Translations under genes and position numbers: made by a program | Notes under the pieces: generated by a model | Seen by the model: only the letters and a program-made list of their open reading frames with translations | The model's database searches: none | What the model was told of the DNA's origin: nothing | Assembly: GCA_016783545.1 (NCBI GenBank) | Contig: JADHWJ010000003.1 | Span: 1,490 to 65,489 of the forward strand | DNA from: Candidatus Aenigmatarchaeota archaeon | GTDB taxonomy: Archaea; Aenigmatarchaeota; Aenigmatarchaeia; QMZP01 | Length of the DNA: 64,000 nucleotides | Reading direction: 5' to 3' | Shown: one piece after another, positions 7,726 to 33,801 of the stretch | Layout: each line of letters starts with the position of its first letter | How positions within the stretch are numbered: the stretch's first letter is position 1

Positions 7726-7774
7726 TTTTTTGTTATGTTAGAGGGATATTATACCCCGTTTAAATGACATTATA
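7726..7774. repeat. Two head-to-head copies of the dispersed motif
   Basis: + TTGTTATGTTAGAGGG (7730-7745) and - TATAATGTCATTTAAACGGGG (7774-7754), 8 bp apart. Confidence 0.7.
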
Positions 7775-10700
7775 TGAGAGAGCGGCTGGAATTAACCAAC
7801 TGCTCTCCCTCAGACATGCTGTGGGAAGGAGGGCTCCTCCCCTACGACACCATGGACCACGGGACCTGGGTGGGCCGCATGCCCAAACCAAGCTTCCAGC
7901 TCACGTACTGACCTTCCTCACCAGAGGGCAGGGCTACGTCCTTGTTGGCGCGCTGGCCCTGCTCCTGCTTGCACAGGGAATGCCAGCCGCCTTCGCCCTT
8001 GAACTTCATGAGCGTTGCCATGATCGGTCTGGTCTGGGGATTGTCGACACTCAGGCCAAACTTCTTGATGCGAAGGACAAAGTAGAGGAACTTCGCCCTC
8101 TCTGCATCCGACCATCCCTTCACCTCTTTGGCCGTGAGAGCACCAAAGATCGTGCCAAGGGCTGACTCTGCCGCGCTTCTGTCGCCACGCTCAACAGTGA
8201 TGAGTACGCCGATGATGGCGTCGCCCGGATCGGTGGAAGCCGGGTCGAAGTCAACCACTGCCGTAGTAGGCACTATGGTTACGGGCGGTGCCGCCGGCGG
8301 AGTCGGCATGGAAAGAGGTGTAACATTCGGCGTACGCGGAGTGGTAGAAGGCCGTCTTCCTCTTCTTTCACTGCCCCGACGGGCCGGATCACTGCCCTCA
8401 CACACCTCTTCGAGGAGTGCCATGTCATTCTCCCGTGTCATACCAGCAACTCTACGAGCGCGAACAGAATCACGACGGACAGAAGCACAGACGCGAGCCG
8501 CCGTGGAACCGAGATGCGTCAGTCTCTTGGCAGCAGCGCCTTGCCCGAAGACAGACTCCCAGTTCCATCCATCAGGGAACTCGACCGGGATCTCGGTCCG
8601 GACAGGGGCTTTCTTGCCAGGCATCTGCTTCTCAGAGATCGCCACAAAGCTGGTATGTGCAGATATCACGCCGTACTTGAGGCTGACCTCTGTCACCCCA
8701 ACACTATCACCGGTCTCCTTGATCTTCTGCCTGGCCCAGAGCTGAGGCGCGAACGTGCACTCGTCTACGTCTGAGAGATTAACATCAAACGTCTGTGGAG
8801 CTCCAGCCGGATCATTACCGGTTACCTTCACCGAAGCCGGAGCCTTCTTGCCTGCGCGAACCGTGATCACAGCAGGCATGTTCTGGAATACATCTGTCAC
8901 ACCGACCGCATCAGTGTCCTTGCCGGCGTCGACCTTGACATCGGTCAACACAGGACCACTGAGAGTTCCCACGATCTTCTTCGCTGCACCTTCCATATCC
9001 TCATTGGGCAGGAAGTTCATGTTCACTCCATTGGTCAGCCTGGCAATCTGAGCCAGGGTAGCATCGTTCACTGCCGTATCAATGCCGATCGTGATCATCC
9101 GCACCCCGCCGGGGCTGGTGTCAACAGGATCCGTTGTCTGACCATCAGAGACGATGACCATGTACTTGCCAGAGTATTTGCCCTTGGCAAGCTCGGCATA
9201 GGCCAGCTTCACGGCAGTGCCGAGATAGGTACTGTTCTCTGATTGCAGGCCTTGAACCATGGGAATTGGATCCTGCTCCCGGGCATCACCAAGCGGGTAT
9301 ATCACCTGTGCATGTGTAGAGAACTTGATGATACCCACGTGGTGGCCGATGTTACTGTCCTTGATCTTCTGGATAAGGTCAGCAACCAGCCGTTTGAGGC
9401 CTTCGATCTTGATGCCACTCATGCTACCTGAGACATCAAGGACGAATTCGATGTCCATGGGAATGGGATCGGCCTGGAACGGAGGGATGATGTTCAGCAG
9501 AACGAAGCTCTCCTTGGAAAGGGTTGCACTATGAACAGCCACCTGGGGAACAGTTGCCATGGGTGTGTAAACGAGGGTGAAGTCCCTGTTGGGAATAAGG
9601 TCCTCCACCACCACGGTTGTCCCCCGCTTCGGCGTCAGCTCCTGCTCTGCCACCAACATCTCGTGGCTCGGGCAGGTGAGCTTACACCGGAATCCAGGCG
9701 AAAGCTTGACCCGGATGGCGGCGTTGTAGGGCACTCCTTCCTTGGTCGGAACAGGGGTGATCTCGGATGCATCATGAGTTACATCCGTATTCGGTGACCA
9801 CCCGTCACCTGTCCGGTCAGTCGGCTTGCCAGCGATGAAACGAGGAGCTACCACCAAGGGAATGCGGAAACGCGCTCCATCTGCGCCCCAAGGTATGGTC
9901 TGGACGAACCTGACCTCGACCAGGATCTCCTCTCCTGGTTCAATGCCACCAACGTTCATGGTGAAGATGTTCTCTCTCTTCTGCTCCATGAGGGTGGCAT
10001 GGTCGCCGGCTGCGACTGCGTCATCGTATTCCTTCTTTGCCTGTGCCTTCTCCTTGATTTCGGCAACAATGGTCTTGTCCTTGCCGATCGTCATCCGGCA
10101 CCCTGTGACAGAGGCGTCGGCGGGCAGCGGAAAGCAATAGATGGCCTCCACGGCTTCGGTGTGTTTGTTCTCGTACTCTTGAGTACACACGACTTCTGCG
10201 GTTGTGCCAGCCACTGTTGCTTCGAACCCCAAGGCTTTCAACGGTACAAGAACCTTTGGGTCAGGGACATTATCAGGTGCGTCCACAGGCGAAACACCCC
10301 CACCGGGGTTTACGACACATCCACCTTTTTCAGGCTTAACTGCACTACTCGGACGACTCATGGTGTTTCCTCCTGATCGTGCTCCCTTAAGAGCGTGACC
10401 GTTGGATATTCGGGACATAACCAGTTCTTTAAAGGCATCCTCACCGTAGTCCCGTTTCAGCATGGCAAGGAACCTTGCAGAATCTGCTCTTCTTCTACCA
10501 CCTCCTTTCCAGAGAACATCTTGTTTTATTGCGTTTGGACTAAGAGTCCTAGCCAGCTCTATTATCTCTGGATTTCTTAGAGCTGACGCGGATTTCTCAG
10601 TCAGATCAGCCAGACTGTGCTTGGGCCTGTCCCTTGCTTTTGCCATTTCGGCTCCTCCTTTCTCCAGGACAGAGTAAAGACAAAAAGAAACCAGAACACT

Positions 10701-10780
10701 TAGAAAAAGCACTAACCAAATCTGTCCACTTCTCTTAGAGATATCAAAGGATATCTTTAAACTTGGAAAGCATGATGTGG
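7754..10780 (-). mobile_element. Putative cassette 1 (GC-rich, VIT-vWA cargo)
   Basis: Abrupt GC rise; leader plus AGGAGG SD; terminal hairpin 7778-7807 then motif. Confidence 0.6.
7842..10646 (-). CDS. VIT + von Willebrand A domain protein
   Basis: VIT (QEYEN..EAIYCFPLP..ASV) and MIDAS DVSGSM, SDG, IGID; ATG 10646 follows AGGAGG; strongly GC-rich codons. Confidence 0.9.
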   Translation of the reverse strand: MAKARDRPKHSLADLTEKSASALRNPEIIELARTLSPNAIKQDVLWKGGGRRRADSARFLAMLKRDYGEDAFKELVMSRISNGHALKGARSGGNTMSRPSSAVKPEKGGCVVNPGGGVSPVDAPDNVPDPKVLVPLKALGFEATVAGTTAEVVCTQEYENKHTEAVEAIYCFPLPADASVTGCRMTIGKDKTIVAEIKEKAQAKKEYDDAVAAGDHATLMEQKRENIFTMNVGGIEPGEEILVEVRFVQTIPWGADGARFRIPLVVAPRFIAGKPTDRTGDGWSPNTDVTHDASEITPVPTKEGVPYNAAIRVKLSPGFRCKLTCPSHEMLVAEQELTPKRGTTVVVEDLIPNRDFTLVYTPMATVPQVAVHSATLSKESFVLLNIIPPFQADPIPMDIEFVLDVSGSMSGIKIEGLKRLVADLIQKIKDSNIGHHVGIIKFSTHAQVIYPLGDAREQDPIPMVQGLQSENSTYLGTAVKLAYAELAKGKYSGKYMVIVSDGQTTDPVDTSPGGVRMITIGIDTAVNDATLAQIARLTNGVNMNFLPNEDMEGAAKKIVGTLSGPVLTDVKVDAGKDTDAVGVTDVFQNMPAVITVRAGKKAPASVKVTGNDPAGAPQTFDVNLSDVDECTFAPQLWARQKIKETGDSVGVTEVSLKYGVISAHTSFVAISEKQMPGKKAPVRTEIPVEFPDGWNWESVFGQGAAAKRLTHLGSTAARVCASVRRDSVRARRVAGMTRENDMALLEEVCEGSDPARRGSERRGRRPSTTPRTPNVTPLSMPTPPAAPPVTIVPTTAVVDFDPASTDPGDAIIGVLITVERGDRSAAESALGTIFGALTAKEVKGWSDAERAKFLYFVLRIKKFGLSVDNPQTRPIMATLMKFKGEGGWHSLCKQEQGQRANKDVALPSGEEGQYVSWKLGLGMRPTQVPWSMVS

Positions 10781-10837
10781 GTTAAAACCCACTTAATAGT
10801 TATATAGGAAAACTTTAAATACCTTATTTTAGCCAAA

Positions 10838-10990
10838 TTACTCAACAGAACTAAATCCGTGGCTTTCCATTAATTTTTTAAAACACTCTCTGCAAAGATG
10901 ACCTCTGGCAAGTATGTCAAGAAGTTTATCCTTAAGCTTAATATTATATCTTTTATCTGCCAAGTCATTGCACAAAATACAATAATTCAT
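10838..10990 (-). CDS. Small zinc-finger protein
   Basis: CILC...LCREC pairs in 50 aa. Confidence 0.55.
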   Translation of the reverse strand: MNYCILCNDLADKRYNIKLKDKLLDILARGHLCRECFKKLMESHGFSSVE

Positions 10991-11050
10991 AGAGGTATTT
11001 GGTTGCAGATGCTTATAAATTAGCAAGAAAAATATGGGATATTTCCCAGC

Positions 11051-11752
11051 TCATTTTCCGAATCTTCGTTCCCTTTCAGAAAAATCTTCAATGACTTTAT
11101 TAAAGTCTTCTTTTGTGAACTCAGGCCACATTGGATCAACAAATGCAAGCTCTGAATATGCAGACTGGAAAAGCAAAAAATTGGAAAGTCTTTTCTCCCC
11201 ACCGGTTCTTATGACAAGGTCTGGGTCAGCTGTTCCGTTTGTCTCAAGGTATGTCCTGAATGTTTTTTCATCTATAGTAGCTGGACTATCCTTTGAAATC
11301 CTTTTGCATGCATTAATTATCTCCTGTCTTCCGCCGTATGCCACTGCAAGATTAAGCCTGAAATTATCATGATGCTTTGTCTTTTCCATTAGCTTTTTCA
11401 TGCCTTCCTGCATATCCTCAGGAAGTTTTTTCATATTTCCTAAAAAATAGACCCTTATTTTGTCTTTGAAAACAAAACTATTCTCATCAGAAAGAATATT
11501 GTTTATCTCCTTCTTTGCTATTCTGATTAGGAAATCCAATTCTATTTTTGGCCTTTTTTCAAGGTTTTCAAGTGACAGTGTATAGAATGTTATGGTTTTT
11601 ATACCAAGTTCCTGTGACCATTTGATTACCTGCTTTAGTTTTTCAACTCCCCATTCGTGTCCCTTCCATGGTCTTTTCAAAAGCCTTTTTGCAAATCTTC
11701 GATTTCCGTCCGGAACGATCGCAATTGATTTAGGTATATTCATAATAATCAT
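11051..11752 (-). CDS. uppS: Cis-prenyltransferase (undecaprenyl diphosphate synthase family)
   Basis: IAIVPDGNRR, YGGRQEI, DLVIRTGGEKRLSNFLLFQSAYSEL. Confidence 0.95.
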   Translation of the reverse strand: MIIMNIPKSIAIVPDGNRRFAKRLLKRPWKGHEWGVEKLKQVIKWSQELGIKTITFYTLSLENLEKRPKIELDFLIRIAKKEINNILSDENSFVFKDKIRVYFLGNMKKLPEDMQEGMKKLMEKTKHHDNFRLNLAVAYGGRQEIINACKRISKDSPATIDEKTFRTYLETNGTADPDLVIRTGGEKRLSNFLLFQSAYSELAFVDPMWPEFTKEDFNKVIEDFSERERRFGK

Positions 11753-11853
11753 TATTATGTGTTTGATTTTAAATATTTATTTTCATCAGATATAAGCTTT
11801 ATTATATAGTAAAATGCGCCCATATATTAGGAAATTCACTCAATAGTTTAAAT

Positions 11854-12681
11854 ATGTTTAGAAAATACGGATTTATCGGTATTTTGCTAATAATTTTTGT
11901 TGAAATAAACTTTATTCTAAAAATCCAGCCATTTGCAAATTGGTATTTCCCAATAGTCTGGTTTGGGTTTATTTTAACAATAGATGCCCTTGTATACAAG
12001 CTTAAAGGGAATTCTTTGATAAGTAATAGGTTTTATCAGTTCTTAGGTATAGTTATAATTTCAGCAATGTTCTGGTGGGTATTTGAGTTCATAAACATAC
12101 CACTCCAGAATTGGAGTTATATGGGTATGACGGGTCTTGGTATCTGGAAAAATCTGTTTGGATTCTTGTCGTTTTCAACTGTTCTTCCAGCTCTATTTGA
12201 AACCGTTGAGCTTATAAGATCTGTTCATCTTTTTGATAGGAAAAAACTGCATAAAAAACATAAAATAACAAAAAAGCTTTTGTATTCAATGATGGTTCTT
12301 GGAGTAATTTTCTTTATCGCACCAGTAGTTTTGCCTAAATTTGCATTTCCTCTTGTTTGGTTGAGTTTATTCCTTATATTAGATCCGATAAACTATCTGC
12401 ACAAACAACCAAGCATTGTTGGCCATCTGAAAGACAGAAAATTATCAATTCCTCTCTCATTATTACTCGCAGGTATTATTATTGGATTCCTCTGGGAATT
12501 CTGGAACTATTGGGCAATACCCAAGTGGACATATACCCTCCCATACGTTGGTTTTTTAAAAGTCTTTGAGATGCCAATTTTAGGCTATATAGGATACTTC
12601 CCATTTGCATGGGAACTATACGCAATGTACTGGTTTGTGAGGAGTCTATTCATCCAAAAAGAACCTTTGATGGCTGAATAG
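11854..12681 (+). CDS. Conserved multi-pass membrane protein
   Basis: Several TM helices; WEFWNYWA..KW.Y and FEMPILGY motifs. Confidence 0.8.
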   Translation: MFRKYGFIGILLIIFVEINFILKIQPFANWYFPIVWFGFILTIDALVYKLKGNSLISNRFYQFLGIVIISAMFWWVFEFINIPLQNWSYMGMTGLGIWKNLFGFLSFSTVLPALFETVELIRSVHLFDRKKLHKKHKITKKLLYSMMVLGVIFFIAPVVLPKFAFPLVWLSLFLILDPINYLHKQPSIVGHLKDRKLSIPLSLLLAGIIIGFLWEFWNYWAIPKWTYTLPYVGFLKVFEMPILGYIGYFPFAWELYAMYWFVRSLFIQKEPLMAE

Positions 12682-12715
12682 CATTTAAATAAATATCTAA
12701 TAAAAGAAGATAATT

Positions 12716-13567: not shown

Positions 13568-13602
13568 ACTAAATATTTAAGTCGGCAAAACAATACTATA
13601 TA

Positions 13603-13848
13603 TTGATGATAGACAAAAAATTACTTATTTTTTCCATAATAATCGGGGGTTTTCTTACTCAGATTATTAATTCACAGCTACCTGGAAATGTTCTTTTTGA
13701 TAGCAGTTCTAAGGCTGCGGCAGGTCTTATAGGAATAGGTGCCACAGAGGTATTGTCAATGGGTTTTGGGTTAGTTGTGCAATACTCTATAACCATTGGT
13801 GTTGTTTATATGTTCTTCAGAGGTATATGGAAAAAGTTTGAAAGATAA
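13603..13848 (+). CDS. Small membrane protein
   Basis: Two hydrophobic helices; fills gap between genes. Confidence 0.55.
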   Translation: MMIDKKLLIFSIIIGGFLTQIINSQLPGNVLFDSSSKAAAGLIGIGATEVLSMGFGLVVQYSITIGVVYMFFRGIWKKFER

Positions 13849-13875
13849 TTTAAAACTTCATATCTAATTAAAAAT

Positions 13876-14280: not shown

Positions 14281-14324
14281 AACCTATCTGAAAGTATTTA
14301 AATCTGTAATACATTGTATTACAT

Positions 14325-15525: not shown

Positions 15526-15554
15526 GTGCGATAGTTGTATTTTTAAAATATAAA

Positions 15555-15754: not shown

Positions 15755-15783
15755 TCTGTTAAGAATTGGATATATTATAAATA

Positions 15784-17606: not shown

Positions 17607-17631
17607 AAGATTGTCATTTTAGAGGGAGAAA
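17607..17631 (+). repeat. Solo motif copy (TTGTCATTTTAGAGGGAGAAA)
   Basis: 21 bp (17611-17631) identical to 20361-20381; immediately upstream of a BRE/TATA-like element (AAAAGCTTTATAAA). Confidence 0.8.
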
Positions 17632-17677
17632 AAGCTTTATAAATATGTATAACTAAGTTATACTAAGAGGTATAATT

Positions 17678-17929
17678 ATGGTGGACTTTGAAAGAAAGGT
17701 AGGTCCAAAGGGACAGGTTGTCATACCCAAAGAAATTAGGAAAAGTTTAGGTATATATCCTAACATGAAGGTTTTCCTTTTTGTATCAGACCACACTGTT
17801 ATGATTAATAAGACGAAGAAAGGAATTGCAGATATATTTGAAGACTTGGTTGAGAAGGATGGTAAATACGTCAAAAAAATAAACACAGACAGATTTTATG
17901 AAAAAGAAATAAAGGAAAGATGGAAATGA
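17678..17929 (+). CDS. AbrB/MazE-type antitoxin
   Basis: KVGPKGQVVIPKEIRKSLGI. Confidence 0.9.
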   Translation: MVDFERKVGPKGQVVIPKEIRKSLGIYPNMKVFLFVSDHTVMINKTKKGIADIFEDLVEKDGKYVKKINTDRFYEKEIKERWK

Positions 17930-19719: not shown

Positions 19720-19739
19720 CCCTTTAAACTTACAAAATT
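19720..19739 (-). repeat. Solo motif copy (AATTTTGTAAGTTTAAAGGG)
   Basis: Variant motif directly upstream of the permease TATA-like box. Confidence 0.55.
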
Positions 19740-20323: not shown

Positions 20324-20719
20324 AATTAAGATTGTATTGCTAACTAAAAAATCACTAATTTTGTCATTTTAGAGGGAGAAATAAGCTTATAAGGGGGAAA
20401 TCTATATATTCTATATGTCACTACTATTTAGTGACTATAGTTGGGGAGAATTGGGAGGAGAAGTCCTGATTCTTCGTCTAAAACATAAGTCTAAATGGTG
20501 TAAAATCCATGTCGGCTATCACACGTATTAATCCATCTGTTTTGCTTCGGCATTACAGAACAAGAGAAAAACAAAAAAAATCGAACCCAAATATACGAAA
20601 TAAAGGGGTGTTTTATCGCCTCTTCCTATCGATTTTTGGGTTTGATCTTACTAGTTTTACGAATCATTTCACAGTTTTCCGAGTGTCTTTTCTAGATCTC
20701 CGAAGGGGGGTGATACTAA

Positions 20720-21028
20720 GTGGATCTTCTGATCCAGATAAGGCCTTTTCTGGGTACGGTTCTCTGTGGTGCCGGTTTGTTCCTAGCACTCTGGAGATAT
20801 CCCAGAAATGAGGGGCTGGTCAGGTTGGGGATTCTCACAGCCTTTGTGGGGCTCTCATATAACCTCAACCTGGACTGGGACGGAAAGTTCCTGTGTCCTG
20901 CCGTTTTCATGGCAGCAGGAGTGGTCATATCTCTCCTGGAAAGGCCATTGGACCGGGTTTTCTGTCTGATGGGTGGATTCATGGCCTTCTTGGGCCTGCT
21001 TTCCGCTCTTCTCTACCAGCCGTTTTAG
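20720..21028 (+). CDS. Hypothetical 4-TM membrane protein (cassette cargo)
   Basis: GTG start after GGGGGGTGA SD; hydrophobic helices. Confidence 0.7.
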   Translation: MDLLIQIRPFLGTVLCGAGLFLALWRYPRNEGLVRLGILTAFVGLSYNLNLDWDGKFLCPAVFMAAGVVISLLERPLDRVFCLMGGFMAFLGLLSALLYQPF

Positions 21029-21251
21029 TGTAGAGACAGCCCTCGCCAACCCATGGCGAACCGAAGGGTAGCAAGGTTGAAATTCCTGCTGCCGAATAAT
21101 AATGGGTAAAATGGTCCCGTGTGAACGCCTTCATGTGGCGGGGCTGTTGTATACTAAGTTCTGTGAATAATCACCTGGGATCACAATTGTCTTTCATTGT
21201 GAAAGGCTGATCTTGGGTGGATATAGCCTCTAGATCCTGAAGGGGAACGCT

Positions 21252-21725
21252 ATGAGGCAGCTGGCAGCCGTTGCGTGCTTGTTGGTGGTGTCGGTGGCCT
21301 TCGGCCAGGATTTCAGCAAGATGACCCCTAAGCAGATCATTGCTTGGGGCGAGCGCAGGAACGCCGAGATGGAGAAGGAGTTGGCCGAGGCCAAAAAGGT
21401 CCTCAAGGTCATGGACACGCTCCGGAAGGTCAACGGCAAACTCAAGGGCACTGGGATGGTCCTGGAGACGTTTGCCCAGGCCGAAGCCCGCAGGCAGGCG
21501 TTCCTGAAGAGCTTCTCGAAGCCGTTGAGGGACAGCGCCAAGATCTGTCGGGAGGGCGCCGAGGAGCTCAGGAAGAACCGCGCCAACCTGAAGGTCGATC
21601 CGAACGACCCGGCCGAGGTCAAGGCCCTGAAGTTAATGTCCAAGGATATCCCCACCTGTTTCGACAACGCTGGGAATTCCCAGGACAAGGCGGCCGATGC
21701 CATCGAGGGCAAGACCTCGAAGTAG
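21252..21725 (+). CDS. Hypothetical secreted helical protein (cassette cargo)
   Basis: AAGGGG SD, signal peptide ..SVAFG, very high third-position GC. Confidence 0.8.
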   Translation: MRQLAAVACLLVVSVAFGQDFSKMTPKQIIAWGERRNAEMEKELAEAKKVLKVMDTLRKVNGKLKGTGMVLETFAQAEARRQAFLKSFSKPLRDSAKICREGAEELRKNRANLKVDPNDPAEVKALKLMSKDIPTCFDNAGNSQDKAADAIEGKTSK

Positions 21726-21894
21726 CCACCAATAGCCAGCCAATGGCTTAATTCGCGGGTTTGGGAGTACCTGCAGAAATTGGTAAAACTCCTTGGTCCT
21801 AGAAAGCAGCCACCTCACAGTGGTTGGGACCTGGCAACGTTCAATGGGAACGGCTGAGAGCTGCAAGGAACCCGGAGAATGAGGGGGACTTGAG

Positions 21895-22050
21895 ATGGAT
21901 GCTTATTTGTGGAATATGGTCAGGAGCTGTGGTGTGGACGCAACGCTGGAAAACCGACGCAACCTCCTCGAGGTTGCCGCTCGGAACTTCAATTTCGGGG
22001 CGCTTTTCCGACTCACGAGGGACATCGAACTCTTGAAGTCGATGTTGTAG
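21895..22050 (+). CDS. Small hypothetical protein, 51 aa (MDAYLWNMVRSCG...KSML), not in ORF track
   Basis: GAGGGGG SD; followed by the same hairpin as the other two cassette genes. Confidence 0.6.
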   Translation: MDAYLWNMVRSCGVDATLENRRNLLEVAARNFNFGALFRLTRDIELLKSML

Positions 22051-22196
22051 TGAAGGAACATTTCGCCAGCCCATGGCGAATAGTTTGGTCAACAAGAGAA
22101 AGGGGGTGGTTAAACCAACTACCTGAAATAACAAATAGGCTGGCCACTTGCCTCATTAATAAAAGTGGTGTCGTTTTATACTGTCATCTTAGAGGG

Positions 22197-25889: not shown

Positions 25890-26136
25890 AAAGACCAATA
25901 GAAGATGTGGGTTTAATGGTTTTTATTGTTTTTTATATAAAGTTCGAATATCGTAGTATTTTTATTGTTTTATTAATAAAATATTAACAAGAGATTAAAA
26001 TAGCCATTTTTACTATAAAAAGAGAATTGGCTTTCTACACGGTTTTTTTCACATAGAGCACACGAGGCTTTTTCTAGATAGGAGATTCTTCAGACACTTT
26101 CAACACTAGTCTTTGGAGGGTCTTTGGGAGATATAA

Positions 26137-26352
26137 ATGAAAGAACAACACAAAATCAGAGCTCGGAACATTGGCGAGGTGTGGGTTTGGTTCATGAGAA
26201 CCCGGGGCGCACTCGGTGGAGTTGCGCTCAGGGAAGTTAGGTTCAAGGTTCTCGACGTCAAAGGTGGCAACGTTGACTGTCTCTTTGACAACGGAGAAAG
26301 GGGCACAGTTCGCATCCACAAGCTTATGGAACCCGAAGTTGTCACATTTTAG
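26137..26352 (+). CDS. Hypothetical protein (small beta-rich)
   Basis: GGGAG SD; first gene after the conserved leader. Confidence 0.65.
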   Translation: MKEQHKIRARNIGEVWVWFMRTRGALGGVALREVRFKVLDVKGGNVDCLFDNGERGTVRIHKLMEPEVVTF

Positions 26353-26362
26353 GAGGATTCTG

Positions 26363-26575
26363 ATGGACCATTGGGAACGAGAAGAAATGAAACGACGTGG
26401 AGAGCTCGACGAAACTATCGCATTCGTTGATCAGAGAACTGGAGCTCCGGTTACATGGGAAGAGATCCGGCGACGACACAGCCAGTGCAAACGGGTAACT
26501 CGTGTCGGAAGCTGGTCGTCTGCTGGTTCGGCTGCATCGGACAGTGGCGGACTTCATATGGGGAGGGGAGGCTGA
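26363..26575 (+). CDS. Hypothetical protein (MDHWEREE...)
   Basis: AGGAGG SD before ATG 26363. Confidence 0.6.
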   Translation: MDHWEREEMKRRGELDETIAFVDQRTGAPVTWEEIRRRHSQCKRVTRVGSWSSAGSAASDSGGLHMGRGG

Positions 26576-26578
26576 ACG

Positions 26579-26938
26579 ATGAGAACCTTCGAAATCTGGA
26601 GGAATCTCCCAGGGAGATCTCCACCACAACTTCAGCTCAGATGCCCATGTCTTGTGGGTATTGAGTGGAGTTCAAAAGGTATGAGAATGACACTTGATGG
26701 TGTTGCCGCTGAGGTCACCGATAAGGGTGGGCACTTTGTATTGAGAGCTCACCTATCCCCTATCACTGGGCAAACTGTACGGTTCTACGGCCAGAAGGAC
26801 CAGGGTTCTGAATCTCCGAAGATACTTGTCGGGCTTATCAGGATCACTGACATTATCCCAACCAACGATGGCCGGCAACATATCCATTTCACATTTCTAG
26901 CAGGACCAGCTGTTGTTAACCTCGAAGTTCCTCGATGA
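26579..26938 (+). CDS. Hypothetical protein
   Basis: GGGGAGG SD; tight spacing after previous stop. Confidence 0.6.
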   Translation: MRTFEIWRNLPGRSPPQLQLRCPCLVGIEWSSKGMRMTLDGVAAEVTDKGGHFVLRAHLSPITGQTVRFYGQKDQGSESPKILVGLIRITDIIPTNDGRQHIHFTFLAGPAVVNLEVPR

Positions 26939-26949
26939 GGGGGAGGCTG

Positions 26950-27087
26950 ATGTTCTCAGAACGCATAATCAGGATACTGGAAGACCCGAAGAGGAATATC
27001 ATCACATGGTTTCTGTCCTGGGCCATCATCGCAATAAGCCGGCTGGCACGGCTTATCGAACGGAATGAGGAGATGATACAAGAATGA
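26950..27087 (+). CDS. Small hypothetical protein, 45 aa (MFSERIIRILED...), not in ORF track
   Basis: GGGGAGG SD; one hydrophobic helix. Confidence 0.55.
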   Translation: MFSERIIRILEDPKRNIITWFLSWAIIAISRLARLIERNEEMIQE

Positions 27088-27116
27088 TAACACTAACGAT
27101 GAATGGGGAGGTCTGG

Positions 27117-27218
27117 GTGGAAGAGGATCACCCGATCGTCAACATCGTCTCAAAGGGTATATTCGCATATATCGCTGTCTGTATCTTTTTGGGGAAACTC
27201 GCAAATGGGGGAGACTGA
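27117..27218 (+). CDS. Small membrane peptide, 33 aa (MEEDHPIVNI...), not in ORF track
   Basis: GGGGAGG SD before GTG; one TM helix. Confidence 0.45.
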   Translation: MEEDHPIVNIVSKGIFAYIAVCIFLGKLANGGD

Positions 27219-27387
27219 CACACCAATACGAGTCAACGAGAGTGGGGGGAAGCTGAAAACATTCAACTTCCAGTCACCTGGATCATAAAGAACTTCCACC
27301 CCTCTCTCAATATATTGTCAGTTTAGAGGGATATTGTGTATCATTTTCACACATTAACCTTTTAATACTTTTTTATCAAAATTTTAT

Positions 27388-28953
27388 ATGCGAGTATTAT
27401 TGGTTGATCTGGGAACTCCAAGAAATGAGATAAGCGAACCGCTTGGAATTGAAACATTGACTCCATATGTTGAGGCTGCAGTTCCTGGAACAAGAGTAGA
27501 TTTTAGATCTTTAGAACTTGATAATTATTCAGATGTCGATGAATATTTAAGATCTGGGGATTATGATGTAATCGGATTATCAACAAAAATAAGATCTTAT
27601 GATAAATTTAGTAGTTCTGTAGAAACAATTAAAAAAGCATCACCACAAACCGTTGTTGTTGTTGGAGATATTCTTGGAACATACGCATTTGAAGATGTCC
27701 TAGACACATACGAAGATGTTATCTGCGTAAGAGGAGAAGGAGAGATACCTTTCACTAAATTAGTCAATAGTGTTGCAGTGGGGCAGCTCTCCTTATCTGG
27801 TATACCTAACCTAGCATACAAATCAAATGGTAAATTGGTAACAACAGATAGAGTTACTATGGACTTAAGAAAAGCTAGGCATCCTAATAGGGTCTTAGCA
27901 CCTGAAATTCTAAGGCAAAACGGTTGTGCTAGAGTAGAAGGAAGTAAAGGTTGTGCTTATTCTCTATGTAGTTACTGTGGTACTGTTGAAAAATATAATG
28001 GACCGGGATGGAGACCATTTGACATAGATTTTGTTACTGATGAATTAACTACTATATCTGATTTGGGGTTCAAATCCCCATGGTTTACTGATGAAGATTT
28101 TTTTGGTGACGATATCCAGAGAGTTTATGATTTTGCAGATGCTGTCATTGATCTAAAAAAACAGGGTATGATAAGGCCTGACTTAGATTTTTATATAAAT
28201 GCACGAGCGGATTCTATTCTTGGTGTCGATTTCGGTGGTACAGATGAATCAAGAAAAGTTTTGTTAAGACTCAAAGAAGCAGGACTTAGGGAGGTTTTTT
28301 TAGGATTAGAATCTGGTTGTAAGCGTCAGTTAAAAAGATATAGAAAAGCATGGGTAGGAAACAAAAGCCTTCAAGCACTGAATCATTTAAGGGGACTAGG
28401 AATAGGTATTGATATTGGATTTATATTTTTTGATAAGGATGCAACTATTCAAGATTTGAGAGATAACACAAATTTTGTTTATGATGCCGCTATAAATACA
28501 CATGATGCAAGACTTATAAAAAGGGTGAGAATAGAACCTAGGACACCAATGGGTGATGACTTTAAAATAGATAATCCGCACCCTGTTATTGATATGGATC
28601 TAGTTGAATTTGAATATGAATTCACTATTCCAGAGGTGGGGGAAGCTTTCATGGTATTTCAGGACTGGGAAAAGGGAGACCTAGATGTTATATATAATCT
28701 TCAAGCACTTTGTAGAGGTGAAGTACCAGAAGACTATACCAGAGAAGAGGTTAAAGTAATAATATCAAGATATAGACATCTAGATTGGAAATACTTTAAC
28801 GAAGTGTTGAGTATATTTGAAACTGGTGAAAAAGATAGAGAGGTTAAAATAGGAGAAATAACACAACGATTCGAAAGAGAGAGAGATAATTTAGATAATA
28901 CATCAATAGATAGAGTGAAATGGCTTGACAGTACATTTAGAAGAAATCTTTAA
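27388..28953 (+). CDS. B12-binding radical SAM protein
   Basis: N-terminal cobalamin-binding domain (EPLGI, RGEGE); CAYSLCSYC cluster motif; FLGLESG. Confidence 0.9.
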   Translation: MRVLLVDLGTPRNEISEPLGIETLTPYVEAAVPGTRVDFRSLELDNYSDVDEYLRSGDYDVIGLSTKIRSYDKFSSSVETIKKASPQTVVVVGDILGTYAFEDVLDTYEDVICVRGEGEIPFTKLVNSVAVGQLSLSGIPNLAYKSNGKLVTTDRVTMDLRKARHPNRVLAPEILRQNGCARVEGSKGCAYSLCSYCGTVEKYNGPGWRPFDIDFVTDELTTISDLGFKSPWFTDEDFFGDDIQRVYDFADAVIDLKKQGMIRPDLDFYINARADSILGVDFGGTDESRKVLLRLKEAGLREVFLGLESGCKRQLKRYRKAWVGNKSLQALNHLRGLGIGIDIGFIFFDKDATIQDLRDNTNFVYDAAINTHDARLIKRVRIEPRTPMGDDFKIDNPHPVIDMDLVEFEYEFTIPEVGEAFMVFQDWEKGDLDVIYNLQALCRGEVPEDYTREEVKVIISRYRHLDWKYFNEVLSIFETGEKDREVKIGEITQRFERERDNLDNTSIDRVKWLDSTFRRNL

Positions 28954-28984
28954 TTATTTAATAACAATAATCAATGGTGATTTT

Positions 28985-29521
28985 TTGAAAGAGGTCGAAC
29001 TTTGCTTCAGGATTGACTCGGAGAAAGAGAAAAAAATACAAGATAAACTAAAAGAATTTTTTGTTAAAAAGGTTACGGAAACTGATACATATTTCTTTCC
29101 TCCACATAAAGACTTCTTTGCAAATAAAAACGGAAAAGAAAATCTCAGAATAAGAGATTCTAATGGTAAGGTAAAGCTAACATACAAAAACGTTGTTTAT
29201 AATAACTGGGAATATTCACATTCTATAGAAAAAACCGTTACAGTGAATGACTCCAAGGAATTAATTGAAATTCTAAAATCTCTTGGGTTTAAAATACATA
29301 TAACTATTGTAAAGGAAAGAGAGATATTTGAAAATGACAAATTCAAAATTACAATTGATAAAATAGAAGATCTAGGATTTTTTGCTGAAATTGAATGGAA
29401 TTGTGAAGAAAATGAAAATGCACTTGAAGAATGTAAGAAAATGGCAAAAGAGTTAGAGCTTGAAGAGATCGAAGATAAAGGCTATTTAAGATTGTTGGAA
29501 GAAAAAATGGATTTAAAATAA
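28985..29521 (+). CDS. CYTH domain protein (class IV adenylate cyclase-like)
   Basis: EVEL, ETDTYF, LRIR, LTYK, KEREIF, LGFFAEIE; TTG start after GGTGA. Confidence 0.85.
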   Translation: MKEVELCFRIDSEKEKKIQDKLKEFFVKKVTETDTYFFPPHKDFFANKNGKENLRIRDSNGKVKLTYKNVVYNNWEYSHSIEKTVTVNDSKELIEILKSLGFKIHITIVKEREIFENDKFKITIDKIEDLGFFAEIEWNCEENENALEECKKMAKELELEEIEDKGYLRLLEEKMDLK

Positions 29522-32137
29522 TTATTTCTTATCTTCCAATGCTGCATGTGCAGCTGCTAACCTTGCGATTGGTACTCTGAACGGACTACAAGAAACATCA
29601 TTTAATCCAATTCTATGACAGAACTTTACGCTTTCTGCCTCTCCACCATGCTCACCGCAGATGCCTATCTCAAGCTTTGGATTAATCTTTCTTGCTTTTT
29701 CAATGCAAATCTTCATCATCTCACCAACACCTGTCTGATCAATGCTCTGGAAAGGATCTCTTTCATATATCTTGTTTTCAACATAAGCTGGAAGGAACTT
29801 TCCTGCATCATCTCTTGAGAAACCGCATGTCATCTGTGTAAGGTCATTTGTTCCAAAAGACATAAAGTCTACTTCCGGAGCAATCTCATCTGCTGTAAGA
29901 GCTGCTCTTGGAACCTCAATCATTGTTCCTATTTTATAATCATTTTCACCAAGCTCTTCAGCAACCTTTGTAACGATATTTTTAATCATCATGTATTCAT
30001 TTACATTTCCAATAAGTGGAACTTCTATCCATGGCTTTGGTTTCAATCCTTCTTTTCTACATTCCTGAGCAGCCATTAGAATAGCTCTTGCCTGCATTTC
30101 ATTTATCTCTGGATATGTAACACCAAGTCTACATCCTCTGAAACCAAGCATTGGGTTAAATTCATGAAGGGATTCAATAATACTCTTTATTTTTTCAGCT
30201 GTTGCACCCATCTCTTTTGCTAACGATTGAATATCCCTATCCTCTTTTGGAAGGAATTCATGTAGAGGAGGATCCAGTAGTCTGATTATAACAGGCATGT
30301 TATCCATTACTTTGAATATTCCCTTGAAATCTTCTTTCTGCATTGGAAGCAGTTTTTCTAAAGCCTTTTTTCTATCTTCCACATTCTCAGCAAGTATCAT
30401 CTCTCTAACAGCCTTAATTCTTGACTCTTCAAAAAACATATGCTCTGTTCTGCAAAGTCCAATACCTTCTGCACCATAATCCTTTGCAACCTGTGCATCT
30501 TTTGGTGTGTCAGCATTTGTTTTAACAGAAAGTTTTCTAAAAGAATCTGCCCAGCTCATTAACTCTGAAAATTCACCTTTCATTTCAGGTTCTACTAGCT
30601 TTAGTTCGTCTTCATAAACAAGACCTTCTGAACCATTAAGTGTTATTATATCACCTTCTTTCAAAACTTTACCTGTTGCTTTGATTTTCATCTCTTTCTT
30701 CTCTTCATTCACTTCAATATCAGAAGAACCAGCAACACAACACTTACCCATACCTCTTGCAACAACAGCAGCGTGAGACGTTTGACCCCCTCTTGCTGTT
30801 AGAATTCCCTGAGCAGTATGCATTCCCTCAATATCTTCAGGTGAAGTCTCAACTCTAACCAAAACAACCTTTTCCCCATTTTCATTCATCTCAACTGCTC
30901 TTTCTGCAGTGAAAACAATCTTTCCAACAGCTGCGCCAGGTGAAGCTGGCAAACCCTTTGCTATTGGTTCAGCGCTTTCGTTTGGATCTATCTGCTTGTG
31001 CAAAAGCTGGTCTAATTGCTCTGGATTCACTCTTATAACAGCATCTTCCTTTGATATTAACTTTTCTTTGAACATGTCAACTGCTATCTTAACAGCAGCC
31101 TGTGCTGTTCTTTTTCCCTTTCTTGTTTGGAGTAAGAATAATTTTTCATTTTCAATAGTAAACTCAAAATCCTGCATCTCTTTGTAATGCTTCTCTAATT
31201 TTTCATATACTGTAAGAAGCTGTTCATAGACTTTTGGCATTACCTTTTTCAATTCATCAATTGGTTGTGGTGTTCTAATACCAGCAACAACATCCTCACC
31301 CTGAGCATTTATCAAGAATTCTCCATAATGCTCTTTTTCACCTGTTGATGGGTTTCTTGTGAATGAAACACCTGTTCCTGATGTCTCTCCTCTATTACCA
31401 AAAACCATTGCCTGAACATTAACACCTGTTCCTGCATCATCTCTTAGCTTGTTTATCCTTCTGTATTTGATTGCTCTTTCATTATTCCAGGAATTAAATA
31501 CAGCATCAATAGACATCTTTAGTTGTTCATATGCATCTGTTGGGAAATCTTTTCCAGAATCCTTTTTAACAGTTGCTTTGTGCAGTTCTACAATTTTCTT
31601 TAGATCTTCTACATCAAGGTCAGTATCTTGTTCCACGCCTTTTTCTTCTTTGACCTTTTCAAGATTTTTCTCAAAATCAGCATGCTTGACTTCCATTACA
31701 ACATCACCAAACATCTGGATGAATCTTCTGTAAGAGTCCCATGCAGCTCTTTCTCCGATTATCTTTGCCAGACCTTCTACAACAGTATCATTCAATCCCA
31801 GATTTAATACAGTATCCATCATACCTGGCATTGAAACATAAGAACCTGAACGAACAGAAACAAGAAGTGGGTTTTCAGGGTCACCAAGCTTTTTGTTCAT
31901 AAGCTTTTCTAATTTTGCAAGCTTTTCCTTTACCTGATCTTCCAGACCAGAAGGCCATTTCTCTTTTTCAACATAAAATTGATTGCATGCATTTGTTGTT
32001 ATTGTAAATCCCTGTGGAACAGGCAGACCAGCAGTTGTCATTTCAGCTAACTGAGCGCCTTTATTTCCTAATAGAAATATCATTTTCTCTGTATTTGCAT
32101 CCTTTACTTCATCAAAACTATAAACCCATTGTGTCAT
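29522..32137 (-). CDS. ppdK: Pyruvate phosphate dikinase
   Basis: SMPGMMDTVLNLG, GGQTSHAAVVARG, GLCRTEHMF, GTNDLTQ, ICGEHGG. Confidence 0.97.
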   Translation of the reverse strand: MTQWVYSFDEVKDANTEKMIFLLGNKGAQLAEMTTAGLPVPQGFTITTNACNQFYVEKEKWPSGLEDQVKEKLAKLEKLMNKKLGDPENPLLVSVRSGSYVSMPGMMDTVLNLGLNDTVVEGLAKIIGERAAWDSYRRFIQMFGDVVMEVKHADFEKNLEKVKEEKGVEQDTDLDVEDLKKIVELHKATVKKDSGKDFPTDAYEQLKMSIDAVFNSWNNERAIKYRRINKLRDDAGTGVNVQAMVFGNRGETSGTGVSFTRNPSTGEKEHYGEFLINAQGEDVVAGIRTPQPIDELKKVMPKVYEQLLTVYEKLEKHYKEMQDFEFTIENEKLFLLQTRKGKRTAQAAVKIAVDMFKEKLISKEDAVIRVNPEQLDQLLHKQIDPNESAEPIAKGLPASPGAAVGKIVFTAERAVEMNENGEKVVLVRVETSPEDIEGMHTAQGILTARGGQTSHAAVVARGMGKCCVAGSSDIEVNEEKKEMKIKATGKVLKEGDIITLNGSEGLVYEDELKLVEPEMKGEFSELMSWADSFRKLSVKTNADTPKDAQVAKDYGAEGIGLCRTEHMFFEESRIKAVREMILAENVEDRKKALEKLLPMQKEDFKGIFKVMDNMPVIIRLLDPPLHEFLPKEDRDIQSLAKEMGATAEKIKSIIESLHEFNPMLGFRGCRLGVTYPEINEMQARAILMAAQECRKEGLKPKPWIEVPLIGNVNEYMMIKNIVTKVAEELGENDYKIGTMIEVPRAALTADEIAPEVDFMSFGTNDLTQMTCGFSRDDAGKFLPAYVENKIYERDPFQSIDQTGVGEMMKICIEKARKINPKLEIGICGEHGGEAESVKFCHRIGLNDVSCSPFRVPIARLAAAHAALEDKK

Positions 32138-32194
32138 GTATCCACCAAGAATAATATAATTGAAAACAAAATTATTTAAATGATTATTAAAAAA

Positions 32195-32690
32195 CACCGT
32201 TAAATTGACAGTATAACAGAATATCAGGGATATTCTGCCCGTTTGGGAGGCTCTCCTTCACTGAGATCTAGTAACCTGGTCCTTCGTAAGGCTCAACATA
32301 ATCAGGGTCTGGTGCATTCAACGATTTCCATACTTCCTTTCCTATTTCTACGAGATAAAGGATGAAAGGAGAAACCAGTAAAGTGAGAAAGAATGTTACA
32401 GGAAGCATCAGAGGATGGAAAGCCAATTTTCCATATCTCAGACATTTTTCTAACACTGGTTTCCACATATCAATGTAAAAGGGTTCCGCGAGTAGGGGGA
32501 GAAATGGTAAAGAGAAGAGAAAAAGCAAAGCAAAGCAGCCCCAGAAACTCGGTGTTTCTTCTTTTTCCGATGTATCCATCATATACCCTTTCTAAACAAA
32601 AGACAAGAAAAGAGAGGAAAGCAACATACTGAAAACTGTTACTATCTTATCTGTTCTCTCTTGGAAACTGTAAAAAGTAAATATGATGTT
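32195..32690 (-). mobile_element. Putative cassette 4 (single membrane ORFan)
   Basis: Leader similar to cassette 1; hairpin GCAGAATATC-CCT-GATATTCTGT (32238-32216) directly followed by TATACTGTCAATTTAACGGTG. Confidence 0.6.
32268..32582 (-). CDS. Hypothetical 2-TM membrane protein (cassette cargo)
   Basis: AAAGGG SD, two hydrophobic helices. Confidence 0.65.
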   Translation of the reverse strand: MMDTSEKEETPSFWGCFALLFLFSLPFLPLLAEPFYIDMWKPVLEKCLRYGKLAFHPLMLPVTFFLTLLVSPFILYLVEIGKEVWKSLNAPDPDYVEPYEGPGY

Positions 32691-32725
32691 TTATTCTTAA
32701 ATTACAAGTTTAAATCTTTAATTAT

Positions 32726-33133
32726 ATGTCAGAATTCAGTCTTTTAGAGGAATGTAAGAAATGCGGAGCAAAATGTTGTAAATCAGGTACACCTATACTT
32801 CTACCATGGGAAAGGGATAAGATAGTAAAGGAAACGGGCAGAGATGTCTTTGAAAAGGCAGCGAAATGGTATATTTTCAACAAGGAAAATGGGGAACCTT
32901 GTCCTTTTTTGAAGAATGATCTTTGTACAATAGAAGAGATAAAACCTATAAACTGCAAGGCTTTTCCTGCAGTCATTTTTGGTGGGATAAACCCTGAAAA
33001 AACAGTGAAAACCTGTCCAATAAAAAAACTTCCAATGGATTTTGTTGAGAATGTGGATAAATTAAGGAAGCAATTGGAAATGTCCTTAGATAGATGGAAA
33101 GAGTATATGGATGACTGTGAAAAAGCTTTATAA
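32726..33133 (+). CDS. YkgJ family cysteine cluster protein
   Basis: CKKCGAKCC, PCPFL..LCTI..IKP.NCKAFP. Confidence 0.88.
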   Translation: MSEFSLLEECKKCGAKCCKSGTPILLPWERDKIVKETGRDVFEKAAKWYIFNKENGEPCPFLKNDLCTIEEIKPINCKAFPAVIFGGINPEKTVKTCPIKKLPMDFVENVDKLRKQLEMSLDRWKEYMDDCEKAL

Positions 33134-33216
33134 GCAAAAAACCAATGAATTCTTTCAGCCATTAGATTATTCAAAGACTTTCTTCAACCGTCTTTTGAAA
33201 ATCTTAGGAGAACAAG

Positions 33217-33450
33217 ATGAATCATCTACTTCTAATCACAATTGTTGTGATCATCAACTATCCTCTTCTCAGGTATGCACTCTATGTAGATTTCAATCTT
33301 ACGAAGCACTGGAAAGCCGTGAAACCGGAAACAGAAGAGGAACGAATGGCCAATAATGCATCATATTGGTTAACACGCATCTTCATGTTCGGATGCTTCC
33401 TTGTATTGATCTTTTGGCTCGATTGGATACTCTTTAAGAAGATCGTCTAA
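33217..33450 (+). CDS. Small 2-TM membrane protein (paralog A)
   Basis: AGGAG SD; MNHLLLITIVVIINYPLL. Confidence 0.7.
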   Translation: MNHLLLITIVVIINYPLLRYALYVDFNLTKHWKAVKPETEEERMANNASYWLTRIFMFGCFLVLIFWLDWILFKKIV

Positions 33451-33459
33451 GGAGCGGAT

Positions 33460-33699
33460 ATGAAACATCTACTTCTAATCGCAATTGTTGTGATCATCAA
33501 CTATCCGCTACTCGATGCCTTACTCGAGAATGATAGAAACATCAAGTGGAAATGGGAAAGGCAGAGAAAACCGATGATTTTTCCAGGAATGGAAAAACTT
33601 AACTCGGCTGTTATCTTTGTTGCACGCATTTTCATTTTCATATTCTTCAGCATATTGTTCTTTCTGTTTGACATGAAGATCTATAACATGATATTCTGA
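33460..33699 (+). CDS. Small 2-TM membrane protein (paralog B)
   Basis: AGGAG SD; first 47 nt differ from paralog A at 2 positions. Confidence 0.7.
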   Translation: MKHLLLIAIVVIINYPLLDALLENDRNIKWKWERQRKPMIFPGMEKLNSAVIFVARIFIFIFFSILFFLFDMKIYNMIF

Positions 33700-33801
33700 A
33701 AGGAGAGTGGGACAGATGGCTTCGACCTGATTGTCCCATTATATTGTCATGTTAGCGGTGTATATAAAAATATTAATATATCAGAAAGATAAAGTGTTGT
33801 T

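Follow-up and report, generated by a model that had tools for sequence, protein, structure and literature searches.

A possible family of standardised, dispersed gene cassettes with foreign cargo, bounded by a conserved 3' element, in an AT-rich archaeal genome

A 20-mer that recurs at the ends of five otherwise unrelated gene blocks was described in an earlier note on a 64,000-nt stretch of DNA, referred to here as the window (G000:C13:1490-65489, where G000 is the genome under study and C13 the contig carrying the window). Analysis of the whole metagenome-derived assembly (885,693 bp in 18 contigs, ∼36% GC, 70% complete) makes it a real, if still tentative, possibility that this 20-mer marks the 3' boundary of cassettes that form a lineage-specific family, are standardised and dispersed, and each make up a transcription unit of their own. 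The proposed order of parts is an archaeal B recognition element (BRE)/TATA promoter, a leader, GC-rich foreign cargo, a hairpin specific to the cargo and a conserved 3' element. Both the cassette architecture and the foreign origin of the cargo are well supported, and the corresponding parts of the earlier proposal (discrete cassettes with a common 3' end, scattered over the genome, foreign in composition and, where tested, of bacterial origin) have held up. The core genes of G000 are archaeal, as exemplified by an EF-1alpha with the archaeal C-terminal domain, and the host is taken to be a small AT-rich archaeon of the DPANN type, probably Pacearchaeota-like.

All five 20-mers were recovered as exact matches with the positions and strands originally reported, and none occurs in 100 dinucleotide-preserving shuffles; when up to three mismatches are allowed, 11 matches are found against 2.0 expected. 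The genome-wide scan proposed in the earlier note was carried out with a 37-nt weight matrix trained on the genome's own motif matches, taking a score of at least 12 as a site, and yielded 49 sites compared to 1-3 in a shuffled genome. Matrix scores are bimodal, the 49 sites standing apart from the background with almost no intermediates. The 3' element consists of 25-30 conserved nucleotides with the consensus (T)TTATAT-TGTCW-NN-TWARNGGGATA, in which a semi-conserved TTTATAT links the preceding hairpin to the core; cassettes share 25-45 nt at this end, and their hairpins are unrelated in sequence. Thirty-four of the 49 sites terminate a GC-rich block, read in the orientation of its genes. The motif had been said to mark the return to AT-rich DNA, and this is what the composition profiles show: mean GC drops from 0.50 to 0.34 within 20 nt of TGTC (30 cassettes), and at most sites the 500 nt upstream have 45-62% GC and the 500 nt downstream 30-39%. 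Segmentation of the genome by GC content only delimited 23 blocks of at least 560 bp with a GC of at least 0.49, of which 22 carry the motif at an edge, always oriented so that it follows the genes of the block. The exception lies inside a gene of 1381 amino acids (C12:31986-36131, minus strand) that has GC-rich stretches (0.47-0.52), lacks the motif and immediately precedes a cassette promoter.

The presence of a hairpin ahead of each 20-mer was only partly upheld. It is clear at four of the five window sites, where it ends 4-9 nt before TGTC, but the third site (27311) has only a weaker long-range stem (27241-27305). Genome-wide, the foot of the stem lies 4-8 nt ahead of TGTC in 28 of the 34 cassettes. 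The mean folding energy of the hairpins is -13.8 kcal/mol, compared to -8.5 kcal/mol for control segments of equal length from inside the cargo (Wilcoxon p = 1.2e-7), and the hairpin beats its shuffled versions at z < -2 in 23 of the 34 cassettes. As originally suggested, the hairpins are alike in structure and not in sequence, both in the 49 aligned contexts and in the comparison of cassettes. A second hairpin, formed by CCCTTTA and TAAAGGG, was considered and rejected, given that GGG-to-GGT changes are uncompensated (by eye).

The cassettes also have a common 5' leader, which is new with respect to the earlier note and had been missed there. An nhmmer hidden Markov model (HMM), built from ten seed leaders and iterated with a threshold of E <0.02, identified 30 leaders genome-wide, that is, the 10 seeds and 20 more recovered without any positional constraint. 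Every one of the 30 pairs one-to-one with a downstream motif on the same strand, at a distance of 355-4080 nt. Leaders are ∼125-150 nt long and are preceded by an archaeal BRE/TATA promoter such as TTTATAAATA. About 25 nt past the promoter there is a hairpin, often with a GTAAAA loop, followed by TTTCNACAC. Both a AAAGAGAA box and tandem GTCTTTGG boxes are part of the leader, the order after the hairpin being a strongly conserved yAAAGAGAA, often TTTTCTTAG, and one or two GTCTTTGG boxes. The latter are spaced 11 nt apart and abut a GGAGG-type ribosome-binding site, which is followed by the first start codon.

Two GTC boxes exactly 11 nt apart occur in 15 of the 30 leaders, and 15 of the 23 genome-wide matches to GTCY-N7-GTCTT fall inside the 30 leaders; as a stand-alone genome-wide signal the tandem boxes were discarded, their 23 matches comparing with 25 for a backwards control. 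By eye, the GTC...GGAGG boxes of the leader look similar to, and are oriented like, the 3' core (GTCA..TTAGAGGG), a likeness that could reflect one factor acting at both ends or a recombination core. Four further GC-rich blocks have the motif at their end and a different start; two of these, including cassette 2 of the window, lie behind a distinct type of promoter, termed class B and described below. Two leaders (C12:39656-39766 and C5:54943-55058) have in common a 56-nt block of 95% identity, with a hairpin between two CAAAGAGA boxes, while their promoters, the remaining leader and the cargo are unrelated. No family corresponding to the leader exists in Rfam 15. At gathering score this database returned a single tRNA in the window, so that the GC-rich blocks were rejected as genes for ribosomal or other structured RNAs, and relaxed scans of three cassettes gave chance-level results. 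The tRNA (49612-49713, plus strand, 102 nt, 56 bits) was missed by ARAGORN and probably contains an intron.

The features of the window, in window coordinates, are listed below, cassette by cassette and then for the motif copies outside the five cassettes.

7755..7774, minus strand: cassette 1, 3' boundary motif TATAATGTCATTTAAACGGG; exact match, matrix score 27.7
7776..7809, minus strand: cassette 1, 3' hairpin GGGAGAGC...GCTCTCTC; fold -21.7 kcal/mol, z -5.5
7842..10646, minus strand: cassette 1, cargo protein with VIT and VWA domains, 934 amino acids, GC 0.56; Pfam VIT 4.8e-34, VWA 8.5e-18; best relatives ∼40% identical
10659..10791, minus strand: cassette 1, conserved leader, with a TATA-like box further upstream; leader HMM E 4.8e-06
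20357..20376, plus strand: cassette 2, class-B motif copy at the 5' side; 2 mismatches; after it come BRE/TATA, the palindrome TGTCAC..GTGAC and leader-like sequence up to ∼20719
20720..22050, plus strand: cassette 2, cargo open reading frames (ORFs) 20720-21028, 21252-21725 and 21895-22050; no Pfam family
22144..22168, plus strand: cassette 2, 3' hairpin CCACTT...AAGTGG; from fold and sequence
22177..22196, plus strand: cassette 2, 3' boundary motif; exact match
26008..26131, plus strand: cassette 3, conserved leader with tandem boxes GTCTTTGGAGGGTCTT at 26109-26124; best leader HMM match, E 1.5e-16
26216..27288, plus strand: cassette 3, cargo ORFs 26216-26575, 26579-26938 and 27103-27288; no Pfam family
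27241..27305, plus strand: cassette 3, weaker long-range 3' stem; the local fold gives only a weak distal hairpin
27311..27330, plus strand: cassette 3, 3' boundary motif, with the start of a radical-SAM gene 58 nt later; exact match
32196..32215, minus strand: cassette 4, 3' boundary motif, directly upstream of the PPDK gene; exact match
32217..32237, minus strand: cassette 4, 3' hairpin CAGAATAT...ATATTCTG; from fold and sequence
32268..32528, minus strand: cassette 4, cargo ORF for a small hydrophobic protein of 86 amino acids
32587..32690, minus strand: cassette 4, conserved leader; leader HMM E 2.8e-06
33145..33211, plus strand: cassette 5, conserved leader, distal half matched; leader HMM E 5.2e-06
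33217..33699, plus strand: cassette 5, two cargo ORFs in tandem (33217-33450 and 33460-33699), encoding paralogous small membrane proteins
33709..33737, plus strand: cassette 5, 3' hairpin GGGACA...TGTCCC; from fold and sequence
33740..33759, plus strand: cassette 5, 3' boundary motif, with the start of a Met-aminopeptidase gene 43 nt later; exact match
6256..6275, minus strand: cassette-free motif copy behind the core EF-1alpha gene and its T-tailed terminator hairpin, with 50 nt separating it from the next gene; mismatch search and matrix
17607..17626, plus strand: class-B motif copy, followed directly by AGAAAAAGC and TTTATAAATA, upstream of a small AbrB-like gene; mismatch search
19720..19739, minus strand: motif copy 38 nt upstream of the start codon of an amino-acid permease; mismatch search and matrix

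Across the genome there are 34 cassettes of 485-4290 bp (median 1275), totalling 48,690 bp or 5.5% of the assembly. They are spread over 11 contigs, with at most two in tandem or convergent arrangement, and each has its own BRE/TATA promoter and leader. Cassettes carry one to eight genes, and 89 ORFs in total lie on the cassette strand. With genes called by one simple ORF rule for cargo and core alike, GC content at third codon positions is 0.61 in cargo versus 0.28 in core genes, and a strong Shine-Dalgarno-like 5-mer precedes 12 of 29 cargo genes versus 53 of 610 core genes. Within the window, the description of all five blocks as GC-richer applies to blocks 1-3 (0.56, 0.52 and 0.50 against ∼0.36 for the genome), but blocks 4 and 5 are only marginally richer (0.41 and 0.39). 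Judged by Pfam only, the cargo does consist mostly of ORFans: nine of the ten window cargo ORFs scanned belong to no family, the tenth being the VIT-VWA protein. Cargo with Pfam matches includes, besides VIT and VWA, a xylose-isomerase-like TIM barrel, GFO/IDH/MocA, PfkB, an L-fucose-isomerase-like protein, an M54 peptidase, MFS and SDR proteins, a Big_9/cadherin-like secreted protein and a prepilin. Three cargo proteins start with the bacterial-type prepilin N-terminus GFTLIE/GFTLME, one of which was scanned and matches Pfam N_methyl, the other two being recognised by eye. Also by eye, about a dozen cassettes open with a small hydrophobic peptide.

The search for relatives covered three cargo proteins. 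For the TIM-barrel protein it returned hundreds of sequences that are 67-73% identical and one that is 82% identical. All 80 of its fetched genomic loci are bacterial (62-71% identical), led by Brocadiaceae, Phycisphaerae, Pirellulales and other Planctomycetota, and in 46 other genomes of the archaeal family no real match was found, only a weak one of 36% over 39 residues. Best matches of the fucose-isomerase-like protein are 58-61% identical, and the named ones are all bacterial (Planctomycetota, Phycisphaerae, Armatimonadota, Omnitrophota, Caldiserica and Calescamantes). Two of the three proteins are, by these comparisons, clearly of bacterial type, and the third, the VIT-VWA protein, appears common to other small-genome lineages; a search of genome contigs found no close relatives of it. 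A donor operon for the TIM-barrel/GFO pair was considered and discarded: a GFO-family neighbour is present in 10 of the 80 bacterial loci, but at only 22-26% identity. Recent duplication of cassettes was likewise rejected, only their ends being common, apart from the single 56-nt leader block (95%).

The genomic context of cassette 1 was compared among relatives. UppS and EF-1alpha are same-strand neighbours in eight relatives; the gap between them measures 118-650 nt in seven of these and 1152 nt in the eighth (G008), and G013 has a larger insert there. In G000 the ∼3-kb cassette 1, with its leader and motif, occupies this position in the same orientation. The empty-site comparison proposed in the earlier note therefore identifies cassette 1 as an insertion with respect to the eight relatives, which are distant (EF-1alpha 72-79% identical) and whose intergenic DNA is unalignable. 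A weaker inverted copy of the motif at 7726-7745 (plus strand) faces the cassette-1 motif to give TGTTATGTTAGAGGGATATTATACCCCGTTTAAATGACA, just upstream of the EF-1alpha promoter. Back-to-back motifs also occur in two convergent cassette pairs (C12:29607/29626 and C12:41135/41170).

In order to describe the occurrence of the 3' element across genomes, a strict pattern and a sequence-only covariance model (31 sites from four genera) were used. Of the 18 family genomes sampled, 11 contain the strict pattern, as does a single genome from another family; the backwards control gave 0-1. At E <=0.01 the covariance model matched 29 of 47 family genomes (17 of 27 genera), with 1-36 copies each, and at E <=1e-4 it matched 24 of the 46 family genomes other than G000. 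It also matches the single genome of family f3, and finds nothing in the 43 genomes of four further families of the order. The motif is absent from viral contigs, and the matrix gave no match in 978 kb of PPDK-related metagenome contigs, the closest of which is no better than 68% identical.

Three of the coded relatives (G004, G008, G013, G016, G018 and G020) provided cassette loci for closer comparison. In G008, all 15 pattern matches, in 14 loci, show a hairpin, TTTATAT and then TGTCTAATTAAAGGGATA, with a GC of 0.42-0.56 in the 250 nt upstream of the element and 0.28-0.39 downstream. The leader HMM had no match in the loci of G008, G018 and G020; by eye, G008 leaders contain similar TGTCTTT boxes. 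No homologs of the 89 cargo ORFs were found in the 20 cassette loci of these three genomes. One GC-rich cassette of G008 carries a bacterial sigma-70 factor that is complete, regions 2, 3 and 4 all being present (L003:1878-2708, on G008:C5); other cargo in this genome comprises acyl-CoA and 3-hydroxyacyl-CoA dehydrogenases and M32 and M20 peptidases. The frame is therefore kept across genera, and its cargo is completely replaced.

The position of the 3' element relative to neighbouring genes bears on its function. At 29 sites the next gene is co-directional; the distance from the core to the start codon of that gene is 37-63 nt in 15 of them and 37-40 nt in 8. A TATA-like box occurs ∼8-16 nt past GGG, between the motif and the next start, and no Shine-Dalgarno sequence is found there, from which many host genes may be leaderless. 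The single tandem cassette pair has the same layout, the second promoter following the first motif. Twenty sites face a convergent gene, where no promoter role is possible; together with the 34 of 49 copies located at cassette ends, this implies that the element belongs to the cassette end as such.

A class-B module, TGTCATTTTAGAGGG followed by AGAAAAAGC and TTTATAAATA, is present in seven copies (window positions 17607-17680 and 20357; C4:18561, C4:19136, C12:24572, C12:25332 and C12:53619), each with a canonical BRE/TATA 9-10 nt after the motif. These copies have small RHH- or AbrB-like (antitoxin-like) genes downstream and no GC-rich block upstream. A TGTCAC-N8-10-GTGACA palindrome is found near the predicted start site in four of the seven. 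The module looks like an operator-controlled promoter common to toxin-antitoxin-like pairs.

The alternative offered in the earlier note, a protein-bound terminator or insulator, gains real support from the fixed distance to the next promoter (15 of 29 sites) and from the copy that follows the EF-1alpha terminator, both of which favour a boundary at the level of DNA in place of, or alongside, a recombination site. The 20-mer most likely acts as such a protein-bound boundary, which is the best-supported of its proposed functions. A protein would bind TGTCW-NN-TWARNGGGATA, block or release the polymerase leaving the cassette and shield the adjacent promoter, so that outgoing transcription would be stopped or insulated at a fixed distance before that promoter. 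The Sal-box/TTF-I (Reb1) sites of RNA polymerase I are likewise short oriented elements placed after a transcription unit, at a fixed short distance before the next promoter; unlike them, the cassette element is tied to foreign cassettes in 34 of its 49 copies.

At the 5' end, the leader would give each cassette a promoter of archaeal type and a leadered start that depends on a Shine-Dalgarno sequence, which most of the genome's own genes do not have, and one regulator binding the GTCTTTGG boxes would probably control all cassettes. A site-directed, non-homologous process may have placed the cargo between these two conserved ends. Thirty separate origins of a multi-box leader of ∼125-150 nt can be excluded, and the leaders must therefore have been copied and joined to their cargo in some way, be it through a dedicated recombinase, through RNA or through rare illegitimate events on which selection then acted. 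A dedicated platform of a DPANN sub-clade for taking up bacterial genes, maybe from the archaeon's own bacterial host, is a possibility to be entertained with reserve: it would have an integron-like purpose and another mechanism, segments being joined between a resident promoter-leader and the boundary element. The earlier description of a capture and integration system that scatters its cassettes fits this in part, in that the cassettes are discrete and dispersed, one is an insertion and the cargo turns over, but neither a target duplication nor a recombinase that tracks the motif accompanies them.

Several results weigh against a family of captured cassettes. Fifteen of the 49 motif sites lie away from cassette ends, no motif copy was found at the 5' ends of cassettes as a second boundary, and none occurs in the empty UppS-EF-1alpha intergenic regions of the distant relatives. 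No target-site duplication or flanking direct repeat rises above the shuffled control. RNAalifold found no consensus RNA structure for the leader, on a sequence-based nhmmer alignment that makes this weak evidence. At the other end, an intrinsic-terminator scan (at least 5 T in 8 nt) passes the EF-1alpha terminator and none of the five window cassette hairpins, which have no T-tail; a bacterial intrinsic terminator was accordingly rejected, the hairpins lacking the required T-tract. The best matches of the VIT-VWA cargo are ∼40% identical, and the named ones come from Pacearchaeota and Patescibacteria, not from a GC-rich bacterium. More generally, identities of 40-71% to the nearest database proteins are no proof of recent transfer. 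The expectation that a recombinase or reverse transcriptase would track the motif was not borne out: with the motif scored by the strict pattern, Y1 and reverse transcriptase each occur in 6 of 13 motif-positive genomes, whereas 2 of 18 motif-negative genomes have Y1 and 3 have reverse transcriptase, a weak association. Neither TnpB nor a serine recombinase (resolvase) nor rve was found in the 70%-complete G000.

Much of this would be expected if the cassettes were a regulon only, with no dedicated capture, an explanation that is somewhat doubtful and has to be taken seriously all the same. The GC-rich blocks would then be ordinary acquired islets, and leader and motif cis-regulatory modules of one lineage-specific factor, spread by occasional duplication and illegitimate recombination and kept because uninsulated insertions are harmful. 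Motif copies off the cassettes (one behind the EF-1alpha terminator, others ahead of core and toxin-antitoxin-like genes), the fixed distance from motif to next start codon, and the lack of a target duplication, a recombinase or a 5' motif copy all agree with it. Also, leaders conserve just short boxes, as expected of binding sites. However, a regulon does not explain why ∼30 unrelated segments sit precisely between the leader and a 25-30-nt element with a sharp step in composition, why 34 of 49 motif copies fall on 5.5% of the genome, or why the frame is kept across genera with no common cargo.

Site-specific recombination of the integron or Xer type is an unlikely alternative origin, in which hairpin and motif would form an attC-type or dif-like site and XerA or a pair of recombinases on C7 would insert circular cassettes. 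Like integron cassettes, those of G000 are discrete, carry unrelated and often foreign cargo, and end in a hairpin that is conserved in structure and variable in sequence beside a short conserved core; also, the outer parts of the consensus, CTTTATAT and ATATAAAG, form inverted repeats by eye. Ghaly et al. 2022 (PMC9668308) describe archaeal integrons as arrays of attC sites and report the recruitment of bacterial genes into archaea through them. The G000 cassettes, in contrast, are dispersed instead of forming an array beside intI, each with its own promoter and ∼125-150-nt leader. No paired R''/R' was seen, the inspection by eye of the 49 contexts (no attC covariance model was run) revealing no conserved 5'-foot partner for the 3' core, and Rfam has no match at these sites. 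Forty-nine sites per genome are unlike a single dif. The genome does encode three tyrosine recombinases, of which one is XerA (C11:900-1802) exactly at its own cut-off and the two on C7 are below all cut-offs. The XerA protein, the best of them, scores 204.6 bits against the 265-bit cut-off of the TIGR02249 integron integrase, and the other two score lower. Membership among integrons was rejected for the want of an integrase, of a tandem array with a single Pc and of an attI. Within the window, the earlier observation that no integrase or transposase is visible was confirmed, tyrosine recombinase, reverse transcriptase, Y1, TnpB, resolvase and rve all being without a match on C13.

An RNA-mediated route, in which bacterial mRNAs from ribosome-binding site to terminator hairpin would be reverse-transcribed and inserted behind a resident leader, is quite unlikely. 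It would account for cargo that spans from the Shine-Dalgarno site to the hairpin and includes operon-like gene sets, and G000 encodes two reverse transcriptases. One of these belongs to a diversity-generating retroelement, however, the presence of reverse transcriptases does not track the motif, and the hairpins retain no remnant of a U-tail of variable length, the linker being the semi-conserved TTTATAT. The retroelement (C17:778-3197) comprises the reverse transcriptase (2010-3197) and a 41-nt template repeat (2031-2071), whose match at the 3' end of the preceding gene (1496-1536) is 80%, with all eight mismatches at template adenines. A second, similar reverse transcriptase is encoded at C16:43487-44566, near a contig end. 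An interpretation of the cassettes themselves as a diversity-generating retroelement was rejected, this element being located elsewhere (C17) and the cassettes having no common internal repeats.

An origin as a single-strand HUH transposon (IS200/IS605, IS91 or Helitron type) is very improbable; the hairpin and the TCA after it would then form the right end of the transposon. The ends of IS200/IS605, REP/RAYT and Helitron/IS91 elements resemble those of the cassettes in having a subterminal hairpin followed within ∼10 nt by a short conserved TCA end, and no target duplications; in the cassettes the hairpin lies 4-8 nt ahead of TGTCA. G000 has one IS200-family TnpA (C8:31400-31849, 149 amino acids) with flanking hairpins of its own, between two very large surface-protein genes, and within the family, with the motif scored by the covariance model, Y1 is present in 5 of 12 motif-positive and in none of 6 motif-negative genomes. 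Enzymes of this kind read a conserved hairpin, however, and that of the cassettes differs in sequence from one cassette to the next. The IS200 copy and the cassettes have unrelated ends, the cassettes beginning with a promoter and a leader and not with a transposon end, and there is no TnpB. The motif-rich G018 and G004 (16 and 10 copies) have no Y1 match, in genomes that are 90% and 87% complete, and Y1 is present in two motif-negative genomes outside the family. The resemblance to IS200/IS605 noted earlier was not sustained, and membership in this group (PATE/REP) was rejected on the lack of conserved hairpins and of co-occurrence with a transposase. The relative G016 has seven Y1 matches.

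An artefact, either chimeric assembly or mis-binned bacterial DNA, might be invoked for blocks of sharply different composition in a 70%-complete metagenome assembly, and is barely credible given that the blocks lie inside long contigs, carry the same AT-rich leader and 3' element, recur with the same architecture in independent genomes of other genera, and are represented in a second, independent DNA sample by 78% of the words sampled from the 9.5-kb stretch over cassettes 3-5 (index matches only).

A family of standardised cassettes also resembles the morons of phages, self-contained transcription units with an unusual base composition that sit between genes found side by side in relatives. 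Morons are not known to have a common leader or 3' element, whereas the G000 cassettes are standardised at both ends and reside in a cellular archaeal chromosome. The literature search, which covered articles without the supplements that possibly list relevant loci, found no description of the cassette architecture, and a frame that houses bacterial-type genes in an archaeal genome looks so far undescribed. For the Pacearchaeota and Woesearchaeota, PMC8204110 mentions bacterial genes, unexplained sigma factors and possible bacterial hosts.

How genes of one domain of life become expressed in another is, to our knowledge, largely unknown. In G000, bacterial-type genes do not stand naked in the genome; they are surrounded by a promoter, a leader, a ribosome-binding site, a hairpin and a boundary element. 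This frame provides a sequence signature for spotting recently acquired genes in such genomes, and its defined DNA and RNA elements and junctions are now open to binding, termination and recombination tests. The likeness of the cargo to proteins of Planctomycetota and other bacteria may offer a clue to the organisms on which these uncultured archaea live. If an enzyme for capture exists, it would be a new one. A dedicated platform, if true, would represent a new class of gene capture and a mechanism of cross-domain transfer in symbiotic archaea, with cassettes that turn over quickly and are placed before host promoters.

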